Origin: an uncultured Methanosarcinales archaeon
GTDB lineage: Archaea > Nanobdellota > Nanobdellia > Woesearchaeales > GW2011-AR9
Length of the DNA: 64,000 bases
Assembly (NCBI GenBank): GCA_964527395.1
Contig: CAZGQD010000003.1
Coordinates: 29,124 to 93,123 of the forward strand
Direction of reading: 5' to 3'
The translations under genes were made by a program, and so were the position numbers. This document shows, one piece after another, positions 3,460 through 26,073 of this stretch (the first letter of the stretch is position 1; each line of letters starts with the position of its first letter). Below the pieces are notes generated by a model. It searched no databases, was not told where the DNA came from, and was given only the letters and a program-made list of their open reading frames with translations.

Positions 3460-6400
3460 TTAATCCAAATCTTTAATACTCTTTAGAATGTCATCGGCTT
3501 TGCCTTTCTTTTCTTTTACTGCAGTTGGGCTTGAACCGCCGTGCCAAGTGAACCTTGGACGCATTTGGATTGGGAAAAGACGTTCGTTGTTATCATCGAA
3601 AAGGATTGCTGCTCCTTTTTGTCTTGGAAGATTGTTTAATTCTACATCAAGACCAGTTCGCATATAACTTTGCATCAGAAGTCCTAGGGCCTCAACATCC
3701 ATTTTAGCTGTAAGTCTGTGGCTTAGGACAATGTCAGATTGAGTCATTACGTCAGTGTGGATCTTTCCTGGCTGTTGTGTTGCTAGTATGAGGGAGATAC
3801 CTGGTTGGCGACCTTCTCTTAAGATTGTGATTAATGGGTCACTTGCAGCAGTTTTACCTTCTCTAGGGAGGAGTTCGTGGCAATTGTGTGCAATTACGCC
3901 ATTTGCTATGAAATTGTGGTTTTGATTTACAGTGATATCGAAGAGTGGTTCAGCTGATTTTGTGGTTCTTTTTTGAATTTTTTCGTAAAAGATATTGTTT
4001 TTTAGTCTTTCTTTAATCCATTTGTCGAAGTTTGGAAAGGATTGGGGCATAGAAACACCACTATTTTTATAAATCCAATCTCTTACTTGGTAACTAGGAA
4101 TATTTAGTTCTTTTGCTATTTTTATTTTTCCCCAGCCAGTTTTTTCTCTGATTTGGAAAGCTTTTTTTCTTAAGTTTTCTCTTTGATTTAAGACGTATTT
4201 TCTGGCTTTAAGGTATTCTAACCATAAAAATCCTGTTTTTTGTTTGATTGAGCAATATCTGTAGCCAACTTTTTCTAAGTATTTTATGGTGTTGTCTACG
4301 CTTTTTGCTAAGGTTATGACTAGTTTAATTGATTTAGTTCCATCTTTTCTGATATTGCCTCTTCTTTGTTTGATTTGGCTGACTTTGATATTAAGGTCTG
4401 AGAAGAGTTTTTTAAGTTGATCAGTGTATTCAACTCCGTTTTCTGTTAGTTCTATGTGTTTATTGCATGAGAATCTGATTGGATTAAAGTCTCCACCCCA
4501 TGTTTTTGATTGTGAAGGAGCCATGCCGTCTGCTCCGAATAATGCTGCTAAAAATTCTGCTTTTTCTTCTTTTGAAGCTTTAGTTAACCATTTTGGAATT
4601 AGCATTTTGATGTTTGTTTTGCTTCCAACTGGAGCCCCTAATTTTTTGAAGTAGTCAAAAGTTTTAGCACTGGCGTTTATTGAGTGACTAGTTCCGTTTA
4701 CTGTTGCAGTTTTTCCTGAGACGTGGGTGATTTTAGAGCTTGTTTTTCTAGAATAGATGTTTGATGAAGTGAAACCTAGTGTTTTTAGGTCTTTTTTGAT
4801 CAAAAGTAGGTCATTTTTGTTTGATTTTCCACTAAAACCAACTTGTTTTGGATTATTACTTAGCCATCCATCTCCGAAAATGTGGCCTAGTAATCTTGCT
4901 CTGATTAGTTTTTTGTCTTGTTTATTTGGGATATTTGTAGGGATTGCAAGTTCTTTAGCATCTTTAGTTTCTTGGAAACCTTTTTTTGTGAATAGTTTGT
5001 GGTCTTCTGTGCATTTTATCTTTCTTCCAGTTTCAGTTGTTAGTTCTATTAGTTGTCTTTTTGGTTTTTTGTAGCTTTTAGTGATATTTTGGAATTCGAA
5101 GTCTTTTGTTTTTTGATTATAGCTCCAGGCTTTTAGTTTTTCTTTATTTTCTACTTTTTTTGTGATTTGTTTTATTGTTAATGTGCCTTGATCTGTAATA
5201 ATTGGGGTGTTTGCAGGGAAACATTCATCTATTGCGAGCCAAACCAAAGGGTCTTGTTGTTTTTCTTTTGTTTCTTTACTAAAATAATGCATTGCTTTGT
5301 CAACACTTTGGAATTCTTCAGATTTTCTGGAAAGCATTCTTTCTTGGAAGAGACGTTTACAGACGAGGCCAGCTACCATGGCTTTAATTTCCCAACCAGA
5401 AGGCATGGTTGCGTATGGACTTACATCTAAAACTGTTACCTGACCACCTTTAACAATGTCTTTTAATGGAGTTCCGTCTTTAGAGAATATTTTCCAGCCT
5501 TTGGCTTTTTCAAATGTGTTAATTACAACAGATTTAGTCACTTTTTGCGCTTCTTTGTCTGCTTTTGTTTGTTCTATTAGGTAATCTATTTCATAAGGTT
5601 CACCTTTATTGTTGGTGTTTAGAACTATTTTGCTGATAAGAACTCCTTCTGCAGTGTTTGATTCAATTTTGAAGGTTTCTAGCCAATCTTCTGGACCAAC
5701 GTCTAAAGGGCTGATTGAGAAAGGAAAGTCAGTAGGAATGCCTTCCTCTTTGTATTTGTAATAGAATCCTGATGGTGTGTAGATTTTCACATCTAGTGAT
5801 TTAGGGTCGAATCCCCATTTTTTAAGGAGTGGGGCATCTTGGTAATTTGGATATTTCATTGTCCAGTAAATACCCATTGTATCGAAAAGGACAATTGAGA
5901 GGTTTTGCTTTACTTCTTTTGGAAGGTCAGCTAAACCTTCAGCGATGGAACCCATGGTGTATGAGTTGTGGACTATAATGTTGTTTGCGATGAAGTTGTG
6001 AGTGTTTGGAACAGTTAAGTCGTATACTTCAAAATTTCCTTCTAAAAGTTCTATTTTGGTGATTTGGTCCCAGATTGCTTCTGAGTTTTGTTTTGATTCT
6101 TTTGGAACTGCAATTTGAGTTTGAATTGGAAGAGTTTGAGCAGCTTGCCAACCTTTTTTTGTTAGAAGTGGGTGCTCAGGAGTTAATTTTATTTGTTTAT
6201 TTGATTTTAGAGTAAGTTTTAGAAGAGTTTTAACTTCTCTTTGATAGAAATGAGTGAAAACAGTTGGGGTGATTTGGTTGTTTTTGTTTAGAGTGAGGAT
6301 TTTTGTTTTGTTTTCTTGGCCTTCTAAATTTTTGATTTTTACTTGTTCTCCACTGTCTAGTTGGATTAAAGTGTCACCATGAAGGCATTTTCCGCTACCT

Positions 6401-6573
6401 CTTTTCCCGCAAAGAAAGATTACGTGGGCTCCTGCAACGTCTAAATAAACTGGATTAGAAAGAGCAGTGGTTTGACCCATCTTTACGAACTGTTTTGCTA
6501 TGAAAATAGTTCCTCTTTTACCGTATTTTTTTACGTCATGTTTACTTCGTCCAATGATCACATCAAAAGCCAT
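3460..6573 (-). CDS. HerA/FtsK-like DUF87 P-loop ATPase interrupted by two inteins (extein about 449 aa)
   Basis: After removing the inteins: N-terminal barrel-like region, Walker A GKRGSGK|S split by intein 1, Walker-B-like LVWLAIDE immediately before intein 2, and a C-terminal LREGRQPGISLILATQQP segment resembling HerA (IAREGRKFGVGLTIVSQRP) and FtsK (GIHLVLATQRP). Confidence 0.65.
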   Translation of the reverse strand: MAFDVIIGRSKHDVKKYGKRGTIFIAKQFVKMGQTTALSNPVYLDVAGAHVIFLCGKRGSGKCLHGDTLIQLDSGEQVKIKNLEGQENKTKILTLNKNNQITPTVFTHFYQREVKTLLKLTLKSNKQIKLTPEHPLLTKKGWQAAQTLPIQTQIAVPKESKQNSEAIWDQITKIELLEGNFEVYDLTVPNTHNFIANNIIVHNSYTMGSIAEGLADLPKEVKQNLSIVLFDTMGIYWTMKYPNYQDAPLLKKWGFDPKSLDVKIYTPSGFYYKYKEEGIPTDFPFSISPLDVGPEDWLETFKIESNTAEGVLISKIVLNTNNKGEPYEIDYLIEQTKADKEAQKVTKSVVINTFEKAKGWKIFSKDGTPLKDIVKGGQVTVLDVSPYATMPSGWEIKAMVAGLVCKRLFQERMLSRKSEEFQSVDKAMHYFSKETKEKQQDPLVWLAIDECFPANTPIITDQGTLTIKQITKKVENKEKLKAWSYNQKTKDFEFQNITKSYKKPKRQLIELTTETGRKIKCTEDHKLFTKKGFQETKDAKELAIPTNIPNKQDKKLIRARLLGHIFGDGWLSNNPKQVGFSGKSNKNDLLLIKKDLKTLGFTSSNIYSRKTSSKITHVSGKTATVNGTSHSINASAKTFDYFKKLGAPVGSKTNIKMLIPKWLTKASKEEKAEFLAALFGADGMAPSQSKTWGGDFNPIRFSCNKHIELTENGVEYTDQLKKLFSDLNIKVSQIKQRRGNIRKDGTKSIKLVITLAKSVDNTIKYLEKVGYRYCSIKQKTGFLWLEYLKARKYVLNQRENLRKKAFQIREKTGWGKIKIAKELNIPSYQVRDWIYKNSGVSMPQSFPNFDKWIKERLKNNIFYEKIQKRTTKSAEPLFDITVNQNHNFIANGVIAHNCHELLPREGKTAASDPLITILREGRQPGISLILATQQPGKIHTDVMTQSDIVLSHRLTAKMDVEALGLLMQSYMRTGLDVELNNLPRQKGAAILFDDNNERLFPIQMRPRFTWHGGSSPTAVKEKKGKADDILKSIKDLD
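3883..5223 (-). mobile_element. large intein (447 aa) with a LAGLIDADG-type homing endonuclease domain
   Basis: Begins CFPANTPIITDQGT after the Walker-B-like DE and ends NGVIAHN followed by Cys. An internal LLGHIFGDGW block matches LAGLIDADG. Confidence 0.7.
5965..6387 (-). mobile_element. mini-intein (141 aa, no endonuclease domain) inserted in the P-loop of the ATPase
   Basis: Begins CLHGDT directly after GSGK and ends IVHN followed by Ser (+1 nucleophile). Flanking extein residues reconstitute GKRGSGKS. Confidence 0.7.
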
Positions 6574-18115: not shown

Positions 18116-19804
18116 ATGGCGGGAAGGGTACATGCATCTGAGTTGGCTAAAGGCCAAAAACAAATTTCTGTAGCTGAATTTTTTGAGAAAAATAGGCATT
18201 TGTTAGGGTTTGATAATCCTAGACGTGCTTTGATGACAACAATCAAGGAAGCAGTAGATAATTCACTTGATGCTTGTGAAGAGGCTAGAATATTGCCAGA
18301 AATTTCTGTTGAGATAATTCAACTGAGTGAATCTAGGTACAGAGTTATAGTTGAAGATAACGGACCAGGGATTGTGAAAAAGCAAGTTCCTAACATTTTT
18401 GCACGTTTGCTTTATGGGAGTAAGTTTGGTAAAAGAGTTCAAGCACGTGGACAGCAAGGGATTGGGATCTCAGCTAGTGTTTTATATGGACAGTTAACAA
18501 CAGGGAAGCCTGCCAAAATTGTGACTAAAATAGATAAAGGAAGTAAAGCTTACACTTGTAGAGTTAAAATTGATACTATCAAAAATGCATCAGTAGTTTC
18601 TGATGAGGGTGAAGTTGATTGGGAAGAAGTAGATCATGGAACCAAAATTGAAATAGATCTTGAGGGTTATTATCAAAAGGGAAGAAAAAGTGTTGATGAG
18701 TATTTAAAGGAAACAGCAATTGTTAACCCGCATGTAACTTTGATTTATACAGACCCTAACGCAGAACAGTTAATTTTTCCACGAGTAGCAGAGGTGCTTC
18801 CTCCTAAAGCTAAGGAAATTAAGCCGCACCCGCATGGAGTTGAACTTGGAATTTTGATGAAGATGATGAAAATTAGTTCTGAGAAAACACTTTCTGGGTT
18901 TTTGCAAAATGAATTTGAAAGGGTAGGAAACAAAACCCTTAAAGAGATTTGTTCTAATAGTGCACTTCTTCCTAAGATGAAGATTAAAGATGTTTCACGT
19001 GAACATTGTGAGAAATTGCTTAAAGGAATTGCGCGAACCAAAATTATGGCGCCACCTACAGATTGTATCTCACCGATCACAGCAGATCTACTTGAGAAAG
19101 GACTTCGTAAGGAAATTAATGCAGAGTTTTTTTGTTCAGCTAGTCGTCCAGCAGCAGTATATCGAGGAAATCCGTTCGTAATTGAAGTTGCGCTTGCTTA
19201 TGGTGGAGAACAGCCAGGAGATAAAGTTATTCGAGTAATGAGGTTTGCAAATAGAGTACCTTTGCTTTATCAACAAGGTGCGTGTACAATTAATAGTACT
19301 ATGCAAAAGATGTCGTGGAGAGCTTATGGTCTTCAGCAATCACGTGGTGGTTTACCAGTTGGACCTTGCACAGTAGTTGTACACATGGCGTCAACATGGG
19401 TTCCATTCACATCAGAAAGTAAAGAAGCTATTGCAGGTTATGAAGAAATTTCAAAAGAAATTCGGTTAGCTATTCAAGAAGTTGGACGTAAGTTAGCTTC
19501 ATTTGTACGTAAGAAAAAGAAAATTGGTGATGAGGCTAAGAAACGTGATTATATTGAGAAGTATATTCCACATGTGGCTGAGGCTTTGCAGGAACTGCTT
19601 GGTTTTAATGAAATGGACAAGAAGAAAACTGAAGATAAGTTAGGGGAGATACTTGAGCAAACACGAGGGGAGCTTGAAGATATTTCAGTTAAGAATGAAG
19701 ATTATGATCCAGAATTAGCTAAGATTGGGCGAGATTTGCCTGAGGTAAAAGAAGAGTTAGATGATTCTGATGGGGCTGCTGGGAAGGATAAGAAGAAAAA
19801 GTAA
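18116..19804 (+). CDS. top6B: DNA topoisomerase VI subunit B (GHKL ATPase)
   Basis: N-terminus [39 protein letters not shown]...[15 protein letters not shown] and G-loop [20 protein letters not shown], typical of Top6B. Confidence 0.9.
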
Positions 19805-20091: not shown

Positions 20092-21207
20092 ATGGCAGGA
20101 AAAGCAAGTGCAGGGAAAGGAGCAAAGGTTGATGTAGTAAAAAAGATTCAAGATGTTGCTAAAGGTATCTATGATGATGTTCTTTTGCTTAAAAAGCCAG
20201 ATTTAGTTATGCCAATTAGGTCGCTTAGTAATGTAGCTTATAACGAAAAGGATGGGTATTTTCAGATACTTAGTAAAGTTAAAACTCGTACGCTTTCTGC
20301 TACTACAATCAAGACTTTTGCACAGACTCTTAGAATGATGGGTCTTTCTAAAGATTTGATTAAAGGAAAAGATCTTGCAACTAAAAGAGAGGCTTATTAT
20401 GTTTCCAAAAACTGGGGAGATGCTAGGTTCAAAGAACAGCCGGAGTCAGATACAGTAATGGATGATATCGAAGCTATGATGCGAGTTAATCGTGAACAAA
20501 TTGGCTTTGTACCTGAGGAGAAAGGTGGAGCTGTTGCTGGTGCACTTACAGTTATTGATAAAGATTCAGAGACAGGAGAGAAGCTTGAGATTGATTGTAC
20601 CAAATTTGGTTCAGGTGCTTATTCGGTTCCTTCATCAGTAGAGCATTTATCGTTTAAAACAAAAGCAAAGTTTGTACTTGCTATTGAAACATCAGGTATG
20701 TTTGAGAGGCTCAATAAGCATAAGTATTGGAGAAAAGCGAATTGTATTTTGATTTCAATGGGAGGAGTACCAACTCGTGCTTGTAGACGGTTTATTCGTA
20801 AATTGTCTGATGAAAAGGATCTTCCTGTATATGTATTTACGGACGGGGACCCCTACGGTTTTTTCTCAATATATCGAACACTTCGTGTTGGGTCAGGTAA
20901 TGCAGCTCACATAAATGAGTTCTTTTGTGTACCTAGAGCTAGGTTTTTAGGAGTAACTCCGCAAGACATTGTTGATTATAATCTTCCTACTCATCCTCTT
21001 AAAGATGTGGATTACAAAAAAATTAAGGATGTTTTGAAAAATGATCCATTCTGTAAACAACATAAAGAGTGGCAAAAAGCTCTTGCGCAAATGGTTAAGA
21101 TGAAGGTAAGAGTTGAGCAGCAGGCGTTTTCTGCAAAGGGATTGAACTACGTTTTAGAGACTTATTTGCCTGAAAAGATTGCTAACCCTAAGAAATGGCT
21201 GCCTTAG
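20092..21207 (+). CDS. top6A: DNA topoisomerase VI subunit A (Spo11-type)
   Basis: TOPRIM region VYVFTDGDPYGFFSIYRTLRVGSGN and upstream 5Y-CAP region. Start set at MAGKASAGKG, which follows the GC-rich leader. Confidence 0.9.
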   Translation: MAGKASAGKGAKVDVVKKIQDVAKGIYDDVLLLKKPDLVMPIRSLSNVAYNEKDGYFQILSKVKTRTLSATTIKTFAQTLRMMGLSKDLIKGKDLATKREAYYVSKNWGDARFKEQPESDTVMDDIEAMMRVNREQIGFVPEEKGGAVAGALTVIDKDSETGEKLEIDCTKFGSGAYSVPSSVEHLSFKTKAKFVLAIETSGMFERLNKHKYWRKANCILISMGGVPTRACRRFIRKLSDEKDLPVYVFTDGDPYGFFSIYRTLRVGSGNAAHINEFFCVPRARFLGVTPQDIVDYNLPTHPLKDVDYKKIKDVLKNDPFCKQHKEWQKALAQMVKMKVRVEQQAFSAKGLNYVLETYLPEKIANPKKWLP

Positions 21208-22312
21208 GTTGATTAAAATTGTTTACTAAAGATTTTAATCTTTCTTTCTTGTGAGGATATCTGAAGCCAATTTCTTTTTGATATAAGGCGATTTGAGATC
21301 TGCTTTTTATTTCTAATGTATAATAATCGTAGTTGTTGCTATGTTTTTTGTAGAGGTTGAAATTTATGTTTAGTTGTTTTAGAATTTCTTGGATTTCTAA
21401 TAGAATGCCTTTACTTGATTGAGACAAACCAATTACAGGATATTTTTGTTTGTCAATTTTGTTACACCAACCATCTCCATCGAAGAACCCAATAATAAAT
21501 TGTTTTTTTAGGTTCATAGGAGCTTTTTGGATAAGTTTAGGGATTTTTAGTCTTCCTTTTTTGTATCCTGCTGGCATTTCGAATACGTTGTTTAGAAGTC
21601 TGTGTAACATCATACTGGTAAAAAGAAGTCTATACCATCTTCCATTGTAAACTGTTTTTACATTTGTTTTTAAGTTGAATTCTTGTTTTAGTATGTGAAG
21701 AAGAGTTTCTAGAGTGTTTTTCTTTTCATCAGTGACGGTTATTTCCCAGCGAAACCTTTTTTCTTGTTTGTATGTTAAGTTTATGTTTCTTAAAGAACCG
21801 TCTGCGTATAGAATACCTAGGAAGTATGCTAAATCTTCTGTTAGTGTTTTTGGGATTTTGATTATTAATGGAGAGTTCATTGCTCTGAAAAATTTAGCTT
21901 GTTGGAAGCATTGGTTGTAGAGGTCTTTTTCTTCTTTTTTTGTTTTATGGCATTTTTGTTTCCAGAATTTGAGTAATATTTTGAGTTTTTTAATTGGAAT
22001 AGGATATTTTCCTTTTCTCCATGAGTAAAAAGTGGGAGTTGGTATGATTTTAATTAATTCTTTTTGGAATTGACCTTTAGGAATGTTTTGTTTAAGGTCA
22101 ATGTAGATGTCAGAGATGATATTTGAAATCCCATCTATGCATATTGGACTTTTGGTTACGTCGTCTATTTTTGGGTCAATTAGTTTGTTGAAGTAGTTGT
22201 TTATTTCCATGGTCTGAAGTCTTTGGAAAGCTTGCTTATAAGCGTTGTCCGCGCCTGTCCAGTGGGTTGTGGGTCGTCTTTTTAAGCATAGATTTTTGGA
22301 TTTTGAGCACAA
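21188..22312 (-). CDS. free-standing LAGLIDADG homing endonuclease (two LAGLIDADG motifs)
   Basis: LAYFLGILYADGSL and FIIGFFDGDGW motifs. Convergent with top6A, overlapping its stop codon on the opposite strand. Confidence 0.8.
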   Translation of the reverse strand: MCSKSKNLCLKRRPTTHWTGADNAYKQAFQRLQTMEINNYFNKLIDPKIDDVTKSPICIDGISNIISDIYIDLKQNIPKGQFQKELIKIIPTPTFYSWRKGKYPIPIKKLKILLKFWKQKCHKTKKEEKDLYNQCFQQAKFFRAMNSPLIIKIPKTLTEDLAYFLGILYADGSLRNINLTYKQEKRFRWEITVTDEKKNTLETLLHILKQEFNLKTNVKTVYNGRWYRLLFTSMMLHRLLNNVFEMPAGYKKGRLKIPKLIQKAPMNLKKQFIIGFFDGDGWCNKIDKQKYPVIGLSQSSKGILLEIQEILKQLNINFNLYKKHSNNYDYYTLEIKSRSQIALYQKEIGFRYPHKKERLKSLVNNFNQPKAAIS

Positions 22313-22363
22313 AATTAGGGTGTCCAGTGAGGTCCTAATTTAACTTAAAAATGGCTGCCTTAG
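21193..22363. mobile_element. putative homing-endonuclease cassette bounded by a 15-bp perfect direct repeat AAATGGCTGCCTTAG
   Basis: Repeat copies at 21193-21207 (last codons plus stop of top6A) and 22348-22363, enclosing the LAGLIDADG ORF. Confidence 0.5.
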
Positions 22364-22609
22364 TTCCAACTCAAATCATCAACTAATCTTAGTCCTTTAG
22401 TTCTAAGCATTGCTTCTAGTTGTTCTTTGTTTCTAGGATCGCTAAGATTGAATTGGGTTTGGCCTGTTATTTTTTCTAGAAGGGTTTTTGTTGGTCTTGA
22501 GTAGGTTTTTGCTTCTGAATTTAGAGTGATTACTTCTGTTTTTGAAGTAGTTAGTATGTTCTTGACTTTAGAAATAGTTAAATAGGTAGTTTGTATACTT
22601 AGTATTAAT

Positions 22610-23953
22610 ATGAGATTTAAATTAGCTGAGACTTTTTGGAATATGGTTAATAGGGGAAGAGGTTCTGGTTCTAGTAATTCCAGTGTTGCTGCTGCTCCAC
22701 CTCAAAGGAGTTTGGATGAATTAGTTGCTATGCTACCAGAAGGTGCTCGAGATGCTGCTCTGATTGGTTTGTCTGCTTCAGGAGTTGATGTTGGAGATGA
22801 TGCTTATAAAGCAATGGTTGAATATCGAAGTGGTGTTGGATTTGGACCAAATGATTTAGCTGGAATAGCGGTATCTCATGGAAGAGTAGATGAAGCTATT
22901 TCTGTTTTGGTTGGAGCAAATTTTGTTAGGAATGCTGCTGAGCTTGCTAAAGAACAAGTAGGTATTGATAGAGCAATTCAAGTTTATACTGATTCTATAA
23001 GAGATGCTGGAGAAGCAAGTAAACCTCGTTGGCATGAATGGGCTGGGGATTTGTACCATGAGAAAGATGATTGGTTTAATGGAAATAATTGTTATAGGGC
23101 TGCTGCTTTTGGATTTTTGAGGAAAGGAGATGTAGGTAATGCCTTAGAAGTAGCCAAAGATAAGTTGAGTGATGTAAATACTCAAATTTTGATAAATATT
23201 CAGGGGGCAGCTAGAGCTAATGATGCAGGATATAAAGGAATGCTTTTGTTTGATGCAGGGAAGTTAGCTGAAGGAGAAGGTTTGTCGTCTGCAAGAGATT
23301 TGTATCAGCAGTCTTTTGATGCAATGTTAGAATCAGATGATGATGATTTTGGTTTGGATCAAAATAGATTACTTATGATTGCAGATGAAAAATTAGGTGA
23401 TGCAGATTCAAGGATTGCAGCTAGAGATAAAGTTCTTTCTGCTAGATATTTAGGAGTAAGTGACCCTAAAAGTTTGAGGTTTGAGCAAGGTGAGTTGGCT
23501 GAAGGACTTGGGCAGTATGAAAAGGCAGCTGGTTTTTATGTTCAAGCTGGACATCATAGAAAAGGAATATCTTTGTTGTTTGATAATGGGCATTTTGATG
23601 AAGGTTTTGCTTTGTTAGAGGCAAACAAAAGAAGGTTAGGAGATAAATATGTTGCTCATTTGGCTTTTGAGCATGGCCGGCCAGAACTTGCACTTGAAGT
23701 TGTACAAAGAAGTTTAGCAGTTGATCATGAATGTGGGACTTTTAGAGATCCAGATTATTTTAAGATTGCTGCTAGAGCTGCTGGTGAGATGGGGAATGAG
23801 GATTTGAAAAGTCAGTATTTAACAGATGGAATAGATAGGTTTGTTAGACTTAGTGATTTTGATGTATGTAGAGAGTTTGCAACTTTGCAAGGAGATATGG
23901 ATGCTGCTGCTGCTTATAAAGGGATGATGGACCTAGGGTCTAATGGAGCTTAG
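22610..23953 (+). CDS. hypothetical Ala/Gly/Asp-rich protein (possible helical-repeat protein)
   Basis: 447-aa ORF; composition is markedly more GC/Ala-rich than its neighbours; no catalytic motif recognised. Confidence 0.4.
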   Translation: MRFKLAETFWNMVNRGRGSGSSNSSVAAAPPQRSLDELVAMLPEGARDAALIGLSASGVDVGDDAYKAMVEYRSGVGFGPNDLAGIAVSHGRVDEAISVLVGANFVRNAAELAKEQVGIDRAIQVYTDSIRDAGEASKPRWHEWAGDLYHEKDDWFNGNNCYRAAAFGFLRKGDVGNALEVAKDKLSDVNTQILINIQGAARANDAGYKGMLLFDAGKLAEGEGLSSARDLYQQSFDAMLESDDDDFGLDQNRLLMIADEKLGDADSRIAARDKVLSARYLGVSDPKSLRFEQGELAEGLGQYEKAAGFYVQAGHHRKGISLLFDNGHFDEGFALLEANKRRLGDKYVAHLAFEHGRPELALEVVQRSLAVDHECGTFRDPDYFKIAARAAGEMGNEDLKSQYLTDGIDRFVRLSDFDVCREFATLQGDMDAAAAYKGMMDLGSNGA

Positions 23954-23959
23954 TTGTAC

Positions 23960-24604
23960 TCATTTAATTTTCTTTGGAGAGATTGAAAGCATGGTTTTTG
24001 CTAGATTTTGTAGGGAAGTGATTGCAAAGAGCTTTTTTTTGGTTTTTCTTGAATAATATTCTGATTCAGTTTTATTTATAGGGCTTTCATTTAAGATTTT
24101 TTGAATGATCTCTTTTTCTTTGTTAGTAAAAATTATTGATAAATTCATTTGAGTGCTTCTTTCTGAGTGTATCTTTTCTTTATCTATTATTAGGTCTGGG
24201 CCGTTTGCTTTGTTGTGTTGTAAAATGAACTCGTTTAGGAAATCATTGTAATTTAATTTAATTTTATTATTACTATTTTTAATAGGGTTGTTTTCTAGGT
24301 TGCTATTTAGTTTTGAAGCTTTTTTGTATAGTTTTGAGTCATTGAAGATTTTTATGGTGATTTTAATTATTTCATGGAATAAGGCTTTTTGCTTTGTTTT
24401 TATTTTGATAAAACTAATATCAGGTGAATGAAGATAGATTAAGAAAGGAAGAGCTTTTAGGTAACGTTCGTTTTTTGTTTTTAAGATAGATAAGATCAAA
24501 TTTTCTATTTTGTTATCGCCAAGCATTTGGTATCCAGCAGAGATTAGCTCGGTGTCTATGTCTTGGATAGGTTTTATGTTTATTTTTCTAGTTTTTATTC
24601 CCAT
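23960..24604 (-). CDS. hypothetical protein translationally coupled (10-nt overlap) to the upstream nucleotidyltransferase
   Basis: 214-aa ORF; no motif recognised. Confidence 0.35.
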   Translation of the reverse strand: MGIKTRKINIKPIQDIDTELISAGYQMLGDNKIENLILSILKTKNERYLKALPFLIYLHSPDISFIKIKTKQKALFHEIIKITIKIFNDSKLYKKASKLNSNLENNPIKNSNNKIKLNYNDFLNEFILQHNKANGPDLIIDKEKIHSERSTQMNLSIIFTNKEKEIIQKILNESPINKTESEYYSRKTKKKLFAITSLQNLAKTMLSISPKKIK

Positions 24605-25224
24605 TTTTTAATCTCTTTAATGTGGTTTTGATCTATTTTGTAATTCCAATCTTTGAATTTGATATCAAGTAGATCCAAAAGTTTTTGTTTTGAATTTGCA
24701 ACTATGGAATTTTGCATGGTTTTATGGTATCTTTCAATAAGATAGCTTAGGTCTATTTTCTTAGATTCTAGAATGCTTTTAATATCATCAAAATCTCTTT
24801 TGTCCCCTCTAGCTAATTTACTAATGATTATATCGTATAAAGATAAGGAGTAAAGTTCTATATTATCAAATTCTTTGATTAATTTTGATTTTTTGAGGCA
24901 ATCATCTAAAAGTTGTGTTCCCATTATGTTTGAGCTGTGAAATAAATCGAAAGCTAGACCTTCTTGTGTTAACCACCGTATAGAGCCTATTTTTTTGAAG
25001 TTGATTTGTTCAAAGATTTTGCAGATGTATTTGTAATCTTTTTCTGAATGAATATTGATGTCAATATCAAGAGTAGAAGGTTTTATGTTAAGAATGGTAA
25101 GGGCAGTCCCACCAAGAGCATACATTTTAATTTTTTTTCCAAAGAATTTACTAATAGATTCCAACAAATCAAATAAATCTTTGGCGTTTGTGGTATTTTT
25201 GTTGTATGGAGGGTTTTTAGGCAT
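24595..25224 (-). CDS. nucleotidyltransferase of the AbiEii/DUF1814-like family
   Basis: YALGGTALTIL...PSTLDIDINI matches the GGTAL...DxD NTase signature of AbiEii-type toxins. Confidence 0.5.
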   Translation of the reverse strand: MPKNPPYNKNTTNAKDLFDLLESISKFFGKKIKMYALGGTALTILNIKPSTLDIDINIHSEKDYKYICKIFEQINFKKIGSIRWLTQEGLAFDLFHSSNIMGTQLLDDCLKKSKLIKEFDNIELYSLSLYDIIISKLARGDKRDFDDIKSILESKKIDLSYLIERYHKTMQNSIVANSKQKLLDLLDIKFKDWNYKIDQNHIKEIKKWE

Positions 25225-25392: not shown

Positions 25393-26073
25393 TTGAATTC
25401 TTTGATTGATGTTTTTATGGTAAAGAGGATATTAACTAATAGATTGGTAATGGTTATAATGGGACTTTTGGTACTTGGAATGCTTGTTTCTTGTTCTGGG
25501 AGTTCTGATGATGGAGAAAATAATGGAGATGATAATATGAGTAGTGAAGAAAATAGTGGAAGTAACCCTGTTGCAGTGTTTGATACTAGCATGGGAAGTT
25601 TTGAAATAGAATTGTATACAGATGTAATGCCGATTACAGCAGGGAACTTTGAAAAGTTAGTCTCTGAAGGATTTTATGATGGGACTCGATTTCATCGTGT
25701 GATTAAAGATTTTATGGTTCAAGGTGGAGACCCGCAGTCTAAAGATGAAAGTTTACGTTCAAGGTGGGGAACTGGTGGACCAGGATATTCAATTGAAGAT
25801 GAGCATATTGCTGGAGATAAGTTATCTAATGCACGTGGAACAATTTCAATGGCGAATAGTGGGCCTTCATCTGGTGGATCACAGTTTTTCATTAATGTTG
25901 TAGATAACACATTTTTGGATTGGAACAAAGAGCCTAGTGCTTCTAAGCATCCTGTATTTGGAGCAGTTGTTTCTGGAATGGATGTAGTTGATGTGATTGT
26001 ATCAGTTGATACTGTTCCTGGAGATCAACCTGCAGAAGATGTTGTTGTGAACTCTGTGAAGATTAAGGGGTAA
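25393..26073 (+). CDS. cyclophilin-type peptidyl-prolyl cis-trans isomerase with N-terminal signal/lipoprotein leader
   Basis: FDTSMGSFEIELY...GFYDGTRFHRVIKDFMVQGGDP cyclophilin core, preceded by a hydrophobic leader ending LVSCS. Confidence 0.85.
   Translation: MNSLIDVFMVKRILTNRLVMVIMGLLVLGMLVSCSGSSDDGENNGDDNMSSEENSGSNPVAVFDTSMGSFEIELYTDVMPITAGNFEKLVSEGFYDGTRFHRVIKDFMVQGGDPQSKDESLRSRWGTGGPGYSIEDEHIAGDKLSNARGTISMANSGPSSGGSQFFINVVDNTFLDWNKEPSASKHPVFGAVVSGMDVVDVIVSVDTVPGDQPAEDVVVNSVKIKG

Follow-up and report, generated by a model that had tools for sequence, protein, structure and literature searches.

Free-standing endonuclease genes that home without an intron are familiar from T-even phages and cyanophages, where SegF, SegG, MobE and F-CphI exemplify intronless homing. 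Phage T4 has 12 free-standing endonuclease genes, and intron-independent homing has been reviewed together with co-conversion, the signature of homing (PMC3943268). The prevailing view is that a homing endonuclease can enter a conserved coding sequence without killing its host only by way of an intron or intein (PMC3943268), and the known exception is a cassette that brings a spare gene end with it, as found in fungal mitochondria (PMC3630166). Elements of this kind, called mORFs, have been described with carboxy-terminal duplication in atp6 of Allomyces macrogynus and in atp6, atp9, cox2 and nad3 of Glomus sp., and they are ordered as an inserted foreign C-terminus, the endonuclease open reading frame (ORF), and then the native C-terminus downstream (PMC3630166). 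The present study analyzes a 64-kb stretch of the genome of an uncultured archaeon of the Woesearchaeales (contig CAZGQD010000003.1; hereafter the window, meaning the whole stretch), in which a gene for a LAGLIDADG homing endonuclease lies convergent to top6A, the gene for subunit A of topoisomerase VI. The 1.16-kb segment that holds it is probably a free-standing LAGLIDADG homing cassette targeting the 3′ end of top6A, with cleavage predicted, and by analogy with the fungal mitochondrial mORFs its mechanism would be a carboxy-terminal swap. A search of the available literature library returned no paper joining LAGLIDADG proteins with topoisomerase VI, or homing endonucleases with DPANN archaea or Woesearchaeota.

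The endonuclease family is tied to a single site. A search of a protein collection gave 16 homologues of the window's enzyme, 48–60% identical and with both motifs conserved, and the distinct loci with readable context number 14 (the window, L081, L082/83, L084, L085/86, L087, L088/89, L090, L092, L093, L097, L102, L103 and L104). In every one of the 14 the endonuclease gene and top6A are convergent, and the former either adjoins the top6A stop codon or overlaps it, the overlap with the top6A end being about 0, 4, 9, 20 or 56 nucleotides (nt). The comparison set was the 80 closest top6A loci among species-representative genomes, all of them metagenome-assembled genomes of Woesearchaeota or Nanoarchaeota, with 69–81% identity to the window's top6A. 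Of these, 78 had no LAGLIDADG match, the remaining two had only distant LAGLIDADG matches at 24–27% identity, and the window's family was absent from all 80; a relaxed search of the 78 endonuclease-free loci likewise found no decayed remnants of it, and brought up only other LAGLIDADG families, in L037 and L022. Empty sites, which carry a single top6A tail, are therefore the rule, and in a large protein collection there were 17 clusters of the endonuclease against more than 7,900 of top6A, an occupancy below 1%. A first-pass annotation of this DNA had proposed a mobile, free-standing cassette at the conserved 3′ end of top6A, and both the constant position and the sporadic, incongruent distribution bear that proposal out. 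Neither of the conditions that it had named as refuting was borne out, as empty alleles are common and have the tail once.

Incongruence is evident from the divergences themselves. Pairwise identity of the endonucleases is 42–66%, and equally so where the host top6A proteins are 34–39% identical or 63–88% identical; L085 and L093, for example, have endonucleases that are 58% identical and top6A proteins that are 34% identical. The sole clearly vertical pair is L082/L088, with 87% identity in the endonuclease and 96% in top6A, and since the endonuclease there outpaces top6A, vertical descent over the time that left top6A 35% identical should have erased endonuclease similarity. The closest contrast between occupied and empty sites is offered by the bearing locus L090 and the empty L014, whose top6A genes are 93–94% identical and which are collinear save for a 1,516-nt insertion starting at the stop codon, after which the flank resumes at TTAA-TTCAAACA. 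Earlier placement of the insertion at the top6A stop thus holds for the endonuclease gene, which starts there, and falls short for the replaced segment, which reaches about 96 nt further upstream. All four contigs of the window's strain (L098–L101), which are independent assemblies, carry the cassette.

The top6A tails of bearing genomes are mosaic. Nucleotide identity of L090 to L014 and L011 is mostly 83–97% along the gene, with a dip to 73–78% around codons 231–260, and drops to 62–70% over the last 35 or so codons. The breakpoint can be placed at base resolution about 96 nt before the stop, between the R and the SEQQ of the RSEQQSLA stretch of L090: the last 96 nt match L014 at 62 of 96 positions (65%) and the endonuclease-bearing L097 and L084 at 72 of 96, and the preceding 54 nt match L014 at 48 of 54 (89%) and L097 and L084 at only 34–39 of 54. 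When all pairs with at least 80% body identity were compared, with the tail taken as the last 38 codons, tail-minus-body identity was −14.1 ± 6.4 points for bearing/empty pairs (n = 7) as opposed to −1.6 ± 4.8 points for empty/empty pairs (n = 21). This tail divergence in bearing genomes is the co-conversion signature of homing, and across the family the in-frame C-terminus is foreign to the gene body, the window by itself being suggestive of the same. Within the window the segment that probably travels with the cassette, as a co-conversion tract or imported C-terminus, is the last 96 or so nt of top6A (21112–21207, plus strand), coding VEQQAFSA...KKWLP-stop after a boundary R codon, and the tail closest to it is that of the endonuclease-bearing L092. 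There was also a difference in haplotype at the breakpoint, with R-A-E-Q-Q present in 56 of 78 empty alleles and 1 of 14 bearing alleles (Fisher p = 7e-6, on counts that are phylogenetically non-independent). The nearest empty relatives of bearing lineages are of the RAEQQALA type in nearly every case, and the window has RVEQQ rather than RAEQQ. At the YLPEK block nearer to the stop, no systematic amino-acid or codon difference was seen between bearing and empty alleles.

A second top6A tail, here called the relic, lies past the endonuclease gene in 8 of 13 bearing loci and 1 of 78 loci without the endonuclease (Fisher p = 1.3e-7). The resulting layout of in-frame tail, endonuclease and relic occurs in the window and seven other lineages (L081, L082, L088, L090, L097, L103 and L104), and the second copies are diverged in sequence and range from about 4 to 45 nt. 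That of L082 reads LSDKLKNNKTWLP followed by a stop (42 nt), that of L088 LLEKLKNNKTWLP and a stop, L097 has LKNQKTWLP-stop, L103 KNARSWLP-stop and L104 PKKWLP-stop; the L090 relic corresponds to positions −45 to −14, the window has stop-KWLP-stop over 15–20 nt, and the L081 copy is degenerate. The farthest relic start is about 45 nt from the stop, at the Y-L-P codons. In the three loci where the origin of the relic could be judged, the relic is closer to a different lineage than to the functional tail of its own locus: the L082 relic matches the L033 tail at 32 of 36 positions and the L090 relic matches L014 at 26 of 31, both better than their own functional tails, and the L088 relic scores 26 against the L028 tail and 14 against its own. 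Because the relics of these loci fit the nearest empty relatives better, they represent the native end, pushed aside when the cassette brought in the functional one. About 380 nt between the L090 relic and the resumed L014 homology (around 1534–1916 of the extracted segment) are unassigned, and some 100 nt of the region upstream of the L090 endonuclease match, inverted, an L014 region about 2 kb past top6A. L077 is a case of tail duplication with non-endonuclease cargo, in which a 193-amino-acid nucleotidyltransferase-like ORF with a weak AbiEii match follows top6A (stop at 3821, ORF from about 3897), with the CACTGGAC box discussed below ahead of it and an 18-nt copy of the top6A tail (AAGAGCAGGCTGCCTTAG) 829 nt downstream, at about 4650–4667.

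In the window this duplication takes the form of a direct repeat. The 15-mer AAATGGCTGCCTTAG occurs exactly twice in the 64 kb, at 21193–21207 and 22349–22363, with no further match at two or fewer mismatches, against a chance expectation of 0.13 matches; 1 of 100 dinucleotide shuffles reached two. The pattern count over the window confirms the two flanking copies that the first-pass annotation had reported, with one correction, that the second copy begins at 22349 and not at 22348. Ungapped extension lengthens the repeat to 20 nt with 18 of 20 identical, 21188–21207 against 22344–22363. The first of these is the in-frame end of top6A, P-K-K-W-L-P-stop, of which the exact 15-mer codes K-W-L-P-stop, and on the other strand it codes the last six codons and the stop of the endonuclease (stop codon at 21188–21190), so that translation agrees with the earlier reading of this copy as the shared end of the two genes. 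The second (22344–22363) is the relic, a non-coding top6A 3′ end that reads stop-K-W-L-P-stop in the top6A frame and forms the far edge of the cassette. In the comparison loci top6A terminates in W-L-P-stop, save for two truncated loci and three C-terminal variants, and nearly all of the 80 relatives end in K-x-W-L-P-stop, which makes the 15-mer the conserved coding end of top6A; that homologous loci also repeat the duplicated tail beyond the endonuclease gene argues that the repeat is not chance. Since the window relic is identical to the in-frame tail, imported and native tails are not distinguishable from the window alone. An allele in which top6A ending in AAATGGCTGCCTTAG is joined directly to TTCCAACTCAAATC would represent the empty or precisely excised state, and recombination between the two 15-nt copies would also remove the cassette precisely.

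The enzyme itself is intact and constrained. The ORF as first listed (21188–22312) has 374 amino acids from a TTG and matches Pfam LAGLIDADG_3 (6e-18) in two stretches. Homologues and public gene calls have 331–358 amino acids, the identical public protein P0001 has 340, and the start is for that reason most likely the ATG at 22210, giving a gene at 21188–22210 on the minus strand for a monomeric double-motif protein of 340 amino acids; the double motif and convergent orientation first noted for a 374-amino-acid ORF are retained, and only the length is revised. The LAGLIDADG motifs are LAYFLGILYADGS and FIIGFFDGDGW, and across 17 family members the catalytic Asp is invariant in the first motif and nearly invariant (at least 90%) in the second. 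An AlphaFold2 model (predicted local distance difference test 91.9, predicted template modeling score 0.90) has the predicted two-domain LAGLIDADG fold with pseudo-symmetric alpha-beta-beta-alpha-beta-beta-alpha arrangement. Foldseek matched it to the TliVMA intein endonuclease (8.6e-12) and PI-PfuI (E 3e-10 to 9e-12 for the two), with template modeling scores normalized to target of 0.72–0.79 for I-DmoI and 0.68 for I-Tsp061I; at the sequence level phmmer gave only marginal similarity to known archaeal enzymes (E 3e-5 to 7e-3). At the N-terminus some 115 residues make up a further conserved helical domain, NYxDLLID...CPICI...YPIPIxKLKxLLxxW, that is confidently predicted and may be an additional DNA-binding module (residues 1–115). 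Structure alignments of the I-DmoI type cover only about 200 of the 340 residues, and the N-terminal domain probably falls outside them. The ratio of nonsynonymous to synonymous substitution (dN/dS) between L082 and L088 is 0.087 at dS 0.76, 13 of the 14 loci have an unbroken ORF, and the insert has a GC content of 0.29–0.32 versus about 0.37–0.38 in the flanks. Given the conserved Asp-Gly motifs, the low dN/dS and a confident model with an I-DmoI-like fold, the enzyme looks functional. The copy in L093 (4001–5002) has an in-frame stop in place of the invariant Trp of RFRWEIT and otherwise matches the intact public protein P0011, and the stop reflects either decay of this copy or an error in sequencing. 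Homing endonucleases go through cycles of invasion, decay and loss, and a nonsense copy fits such a cycle. No relative of the endonuclease was present in the viral contigs of IMG/VR. An intein was ruled out, the ORF having no Hint or intein domain in Pfam, and so was an intron, as the gene is antisense to top6A and no Rfam intron family matched between 20500 and 23000 at E ≤ 1. Rfam gave only a sub-threshold SNORD59 match (21213–21286, E 0.13, 23 bits against a cut-off of 45), which was taken as chance.

These patterns would be accounted for by a cassette of four parts: a replacement 3′ end of top6A that keeps the essential gene intact, an antisense endonuclease gene whose 3′ end overlaps the top6A stop region, a promoter of its own consisting of a TATA box with CACTGGACA ahead of it, and the relic of the displaced top6A tail. 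The enzyme would cut endonuclease-free top6A alleles somewhere inside their last 100 or so nt. The RAEQQALA-coding block, some 96 nt ahead of the stop, is the best candidate for the cut site, favored because the mosaic tract starts there and because carriers almost never have this haplotype. A second candidate, the YLPEK block at about −45, is the place from which relics start and the one long block that stays conserved as far out as the 35%-identical clade. The break would then be repaired from an endonuclease-bearing donor, with donor tail, endonuclease gene and promoter copied in. Left homology would come from top6A and right homology from the relic, which would make downstream synteny dispensable, and repair would leave a mosaic top6A followed by the endonuclease gene and a remnant of the native tail, the 15-nt repeat of the window being such a remnant paired with the functional tail. 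Both the specific cut site and the part of the relic as a homology arm are put forward tentatively, as suggestions with rather less than an even chance of being right.

Several observations weigh against this reading or weaken it. The bearing locus L102 has RAEQQ, which makes the block an imperfect marker of immunity. Clear relics were not seen in 5 of the 13 assessable loci, and the relic counts share with the haplotype counts a lack of phylogenetic independence. In the window the mosaic signal is weak (tail 63–73% against body 73–75% in comparison with L001–L004), because the nearest relatives share only about 75% nucleotide identity, and the window relic equals the functional tail over 15 nt, unlike the resident-type KTWLP of L001–L004; it may be donor-derived or have been homogenized by conversion. 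The collections contain no endonuclease-free allele of the same species: exact look-ups of the 371- and 429-amino-acid top6A products gave nothing, and the nearest other top6A among 5.8 billion proteins is 83% identical. Finally, cleavage and the place of the cut are predictions drawn from sequence.

Several alternative explanations were considered. It could be that the gene is an old, vertically inherited neighbor of top6A, lost in most lineages, whose LAGLIDADG protein has been domesticated to serve the host, for instance as a WhiA-like regulator or through antisense control of top6A, the repeat being a by-product of local rearrangement. Such a protein would be expected to show the strong purifying selection (dN/dS 0.087), the invariant position and orientation beside top6A and the extra conserved N-terminal domain that are seen, a promoter motif common to other LAGLIDADG genes suggests regulation, and WhiA structures are among the Foldseek fold matches. 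WhiA-type proteins, however, have lost the catalytic acidic residues, both of which are kept here, and a domesticated gene fits poorly with an occupancy below 1% of top6A clusters, with incongruent divergences of endonuclease and top6A, and with a bearing genome beside empty relatives whose top6A is 93% identical. As mosaic tails and resident-type relics are also unexpected under vertical descent plus loss, we consider domestication improbable. Those same tails and relics demonstrate recombination and not the origin of the break, and DPANN archaea are known to exchange DNA with their neighbors, which would permit the cassette to have spread by ordinary homologous recombination after DNA uptake with the endonuclease inactive or irrelevant. 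Yet a passive 1.1-kb insert without benefit should decay fast, and the ORF is intact in all but one of the loci and constrained; exclusive association with a single site across top6A proteins only 35% identical is, moreover, the signature of an enzyme-defined target. Spread of this passive kind is accordingly quite improbable.

The perfect 15-nt direct repeat on either side of the insert might alternatively be read as a target-site duplication left by transposase- or integrase-like insertion, and a tyrosine integrase gene does lie beside the endonuclease in L085 and L086. This integrase is limited to one lineage, and a transposon or insertion sequence was ruled out because there is no transposase and there are no terminal inverted repeats at the cassette ends, nor does the window cassette encode an integrase. 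The second copies, at about 4 to 45 nt, are too variable in length and too diverged for a target-site duplication, and they resemble the tail of a different lineage, so that this interpretation was rejected and insertion by such a route is highly unlikely. The first-pass annotation had left open whether the repeat was a target-site duplication or the remnant of a homing site, and it is the latter that stands, the resident lineage being matched wherever this could be judged. The AT-rich genome might also suggest a repeat that arose by chance or through misassembly, for which the shuffle reaching two matches could be cited, but this is effectively excluded by recurrence of the architecture in the independent assemblies L098–L101 and in seven other lineages, and by its association with the presence of the endonuclease (p = 1.3e-7). 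A homing cassette that replaces the end of top6A thus remains the explanation that we prefer.

The upstream region of the endonuclease gene adds a pattern that extends beyond top6A. A TTATAA at 22236–22241 on the minus strand, 26–31 nt upstream of the ATG, is the likely archaeal TATA box, read from the nucleotide sequence, and its spacing would imply a leaderless or near-leaderless mRNA. The CACTGGACA motif occurs at 22256–22264 (minus strand), 14 nt upstream of the TATA box, and again at 22321–22329 (minus strand) beside the relic, and CACTGGAC is found only twice in the window, both times just upstream of the endonuclease gene. In related loci a CACT[G/A]G[A/T]CA box, 13–17 nt upstream of a TATA-like element and typically 52–58 nt from the ATG, precedes LAGLIDADG genes of several unrelated families (L004:8091, L009:10365, L037:7087 and 7128, L041:10448, L072:1525, L081:4918, L084:3584 on the minus strand, L093:3830 and 3906, and upstream of 3001 in L103). 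Among 27 LAGLIDADG ORFs, 7 have the exact 8-mer in the 200 nt ahead of them, whereas 1 of 790 other ORFs does (p = 1.5e-10); close variants were seen in about 18 of 23. No fewer than five unrelated LAGLIDADG families of Woesearchaeota have the box, at top6A, next to tRNA genes and in other places, and it may serve the homing-endonuclease genes of these archaea as a shared operator. That the relic is a working, portable right-hand homology arm and that the box is a common operator for the homing endonucleases of the cell is, taken jointly, doubtful. If it were true, the arm would let a free-standing endonuclease enter lineages with unrelated downstream DNA, which would explain how top6A genes whose products are only 35% identical came to be invaded, and a single factor, host- or element-encoded, would turn all homing endonucleases of the cell on or off together. 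In L005, L009, L011, L018 and L041, free-standing LAGLIDADG genes directly follow the 3′ end of a tRNA gene (GGTTCGAATCC and onward, then the CACTGGACA box), suggesting further families that home beside tRNA genes. A scan of the window with bacterial promoter and terminator models was uninformative, the host being an archaeon.

The host genes are ordinary. The top6BA pair, beside which no other type II topoisomerase subunit pair was seen in the locus, consists of top6B (18116–19804, plus strand; Pfam Topo-VIb_trans 1e-58 and HATPase_c) followed by top6A (20092–21207, plus strand; 371 amino acids from ATG; Pfam TOP6A-Spo11_Toprim 7e-61, Topo_VI_alpha and TP6A_N), and both are typical in Pfam content. 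Gene order in relatives shows that the ancestral immediate downstream neighbor of top6A is a cyclophilin-type peptidyl-prolyl isomerase gene, which begins at or just past the top6A stop in the endonuclease-free L002, L003, L004, L017, L022, L025 and L026; in the window it lies at 25393–26073 (plus strand), 4.2 kb from top6A, with the cassette and a variable island in between. The island (22610–25224) codes for a 447-amino-acid TPR-like protein, a 214-amino-acid protein and a DUF6036 nucleotidyltransferase, and none of the three genes has a counterpart in any related locus; the latter two overlap by 10 nt and resemble a pair of the toxin-antitoxin type. The spacer past the relic (22364–22609) contains a minus-strand open frame of 82 codons (22360–22608, ending in LEAMLRTKGLRLVDDLSWN and a stop) that has no ATG, GTG or TTG start and whose TAA stop overlaps the TTAG of the relic. 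It has no tblastn match in related loci, its best Pfam E of 0.036 is below the cut-off, no gene is called there in public assemblies, and it may be a gene fragment or chance.

There were other homing-type elements in and around these loci. On the minus strand of the window at 3460–6573, an ORF of 1,037 amino acids has intein signatures (Intein_splicing 1.9e-40, residues 460–897), a LAGLIDADG_3 stretch at 669–757 and a second Hint/Vint region at residues 60–218, so that the window's genome also has one or more intein-borne endonucleases. Other LAGLIDADG families lie just downstream of top6A on the same strand in L037 (7337–8180), L072 (1664–2780) and L040 (7390–8497), with proteins of 280 amino acids, or about 370 with a C-terminal HTH_3 domain, making the 3′ flank of top6A a hotspot for more than one endonuclease family. 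The RSEQQ tail haplotype is found in L040 and L072 as well. A tyrosine integrase gene is directly upstream of the endonuclease gene at L085:4122–4940 and L086:1–301, one deep lineage in which top6A is only 34% identical to that of the window. Directly upstream of top6A in L067 (2732–5984) is a gene for 1,083 amino acids, where top6B normally has about 560, that matches LAGLIDADG profiles, and a LAGLIDADG match lies in the same position in L046 (3572–4003); these are probably inteins in the top6B of some Woesearchaeota.

If the cassette is as we describe it, the gene-end replacement solution appears in the chromosome of a DPANN archaeon, and it does so with natural replication, there being 14 loci, three tail haplotypes, relics at differing stages of decay and one nonsense copy. 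This would be a clean natural setting in which to study how archaeal genes undergo intron-less homing and have their ends replaced, and direct evidence of DNA movement between deeply diverged lineages of Woesearchaeota. It also calls for caution when top6A is used for phylogeny, as its 3′ ends are mosaic, and it offers a new LAGLIDADG scaffold of the monomeric type, which has an additional domain at the N-terminus and whose predicted target lies in a conserved gene, as well as a candidate shared regulatory box for selfish nucleases of archaea.

Compared with described systems, the cassette is most like the mORFs. As in those elements, whose endonucleases are of the LAGLIDADG or GIY-YIG type, a free-standing endonuclease ORF sits where an essential conserved gene ends, the body of that gene reads in frame into a foreign C-terminal segment, a second, non-functional C-terminus lies past the endonuclease and, in the three loci where this could be judged, is closer to relatives than the in-frame copy, and the distribution is sporadic in a way that suggests horizontal transfer. 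It differs in being on an archaeal chromosome rather than in an organelle and in having top6A as target; in that the endonuclease is antisense and convergent in all of the loci with a promoter of its own, whereas many mORFs are in phase and co-transcribed; and in that the relic is short (at most 45 nt) and in the window equals the in-frame copy over 15 nt. With the intronless homing of phages it shares an endonuclease gene beside and not inside the targeted gene, a carrier immunity presumed from variants of the target sequence, and, as predicted here, spread through the repair of double-strand breaks, in which the neighboring stretch of the gene is co-converted. The phage enzymes are GIY-YIG, HNH or Endo VII-type and act between co-infecting genomes that are homologous on both sides, whereas here a LAGLIDADG enzyme is found in cellular archaea, with non-homologous downstream flanks and a duplicated target tail. 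The monomeric two-domain fold (Foldseek E 1e-7 to 9e-12) and the archaeal host are shared with I-DmoI, I-Tsp061I, PI-PfuI and the TliVMA intein endonuclease, but I-DmoI and I-Tsp061I are encoded by rRNA introns and PI-PfuI and TliVMA by inteins, while the gene of the window is in neither and its product has in addition the N-terminal domain of about 115 amino acids.

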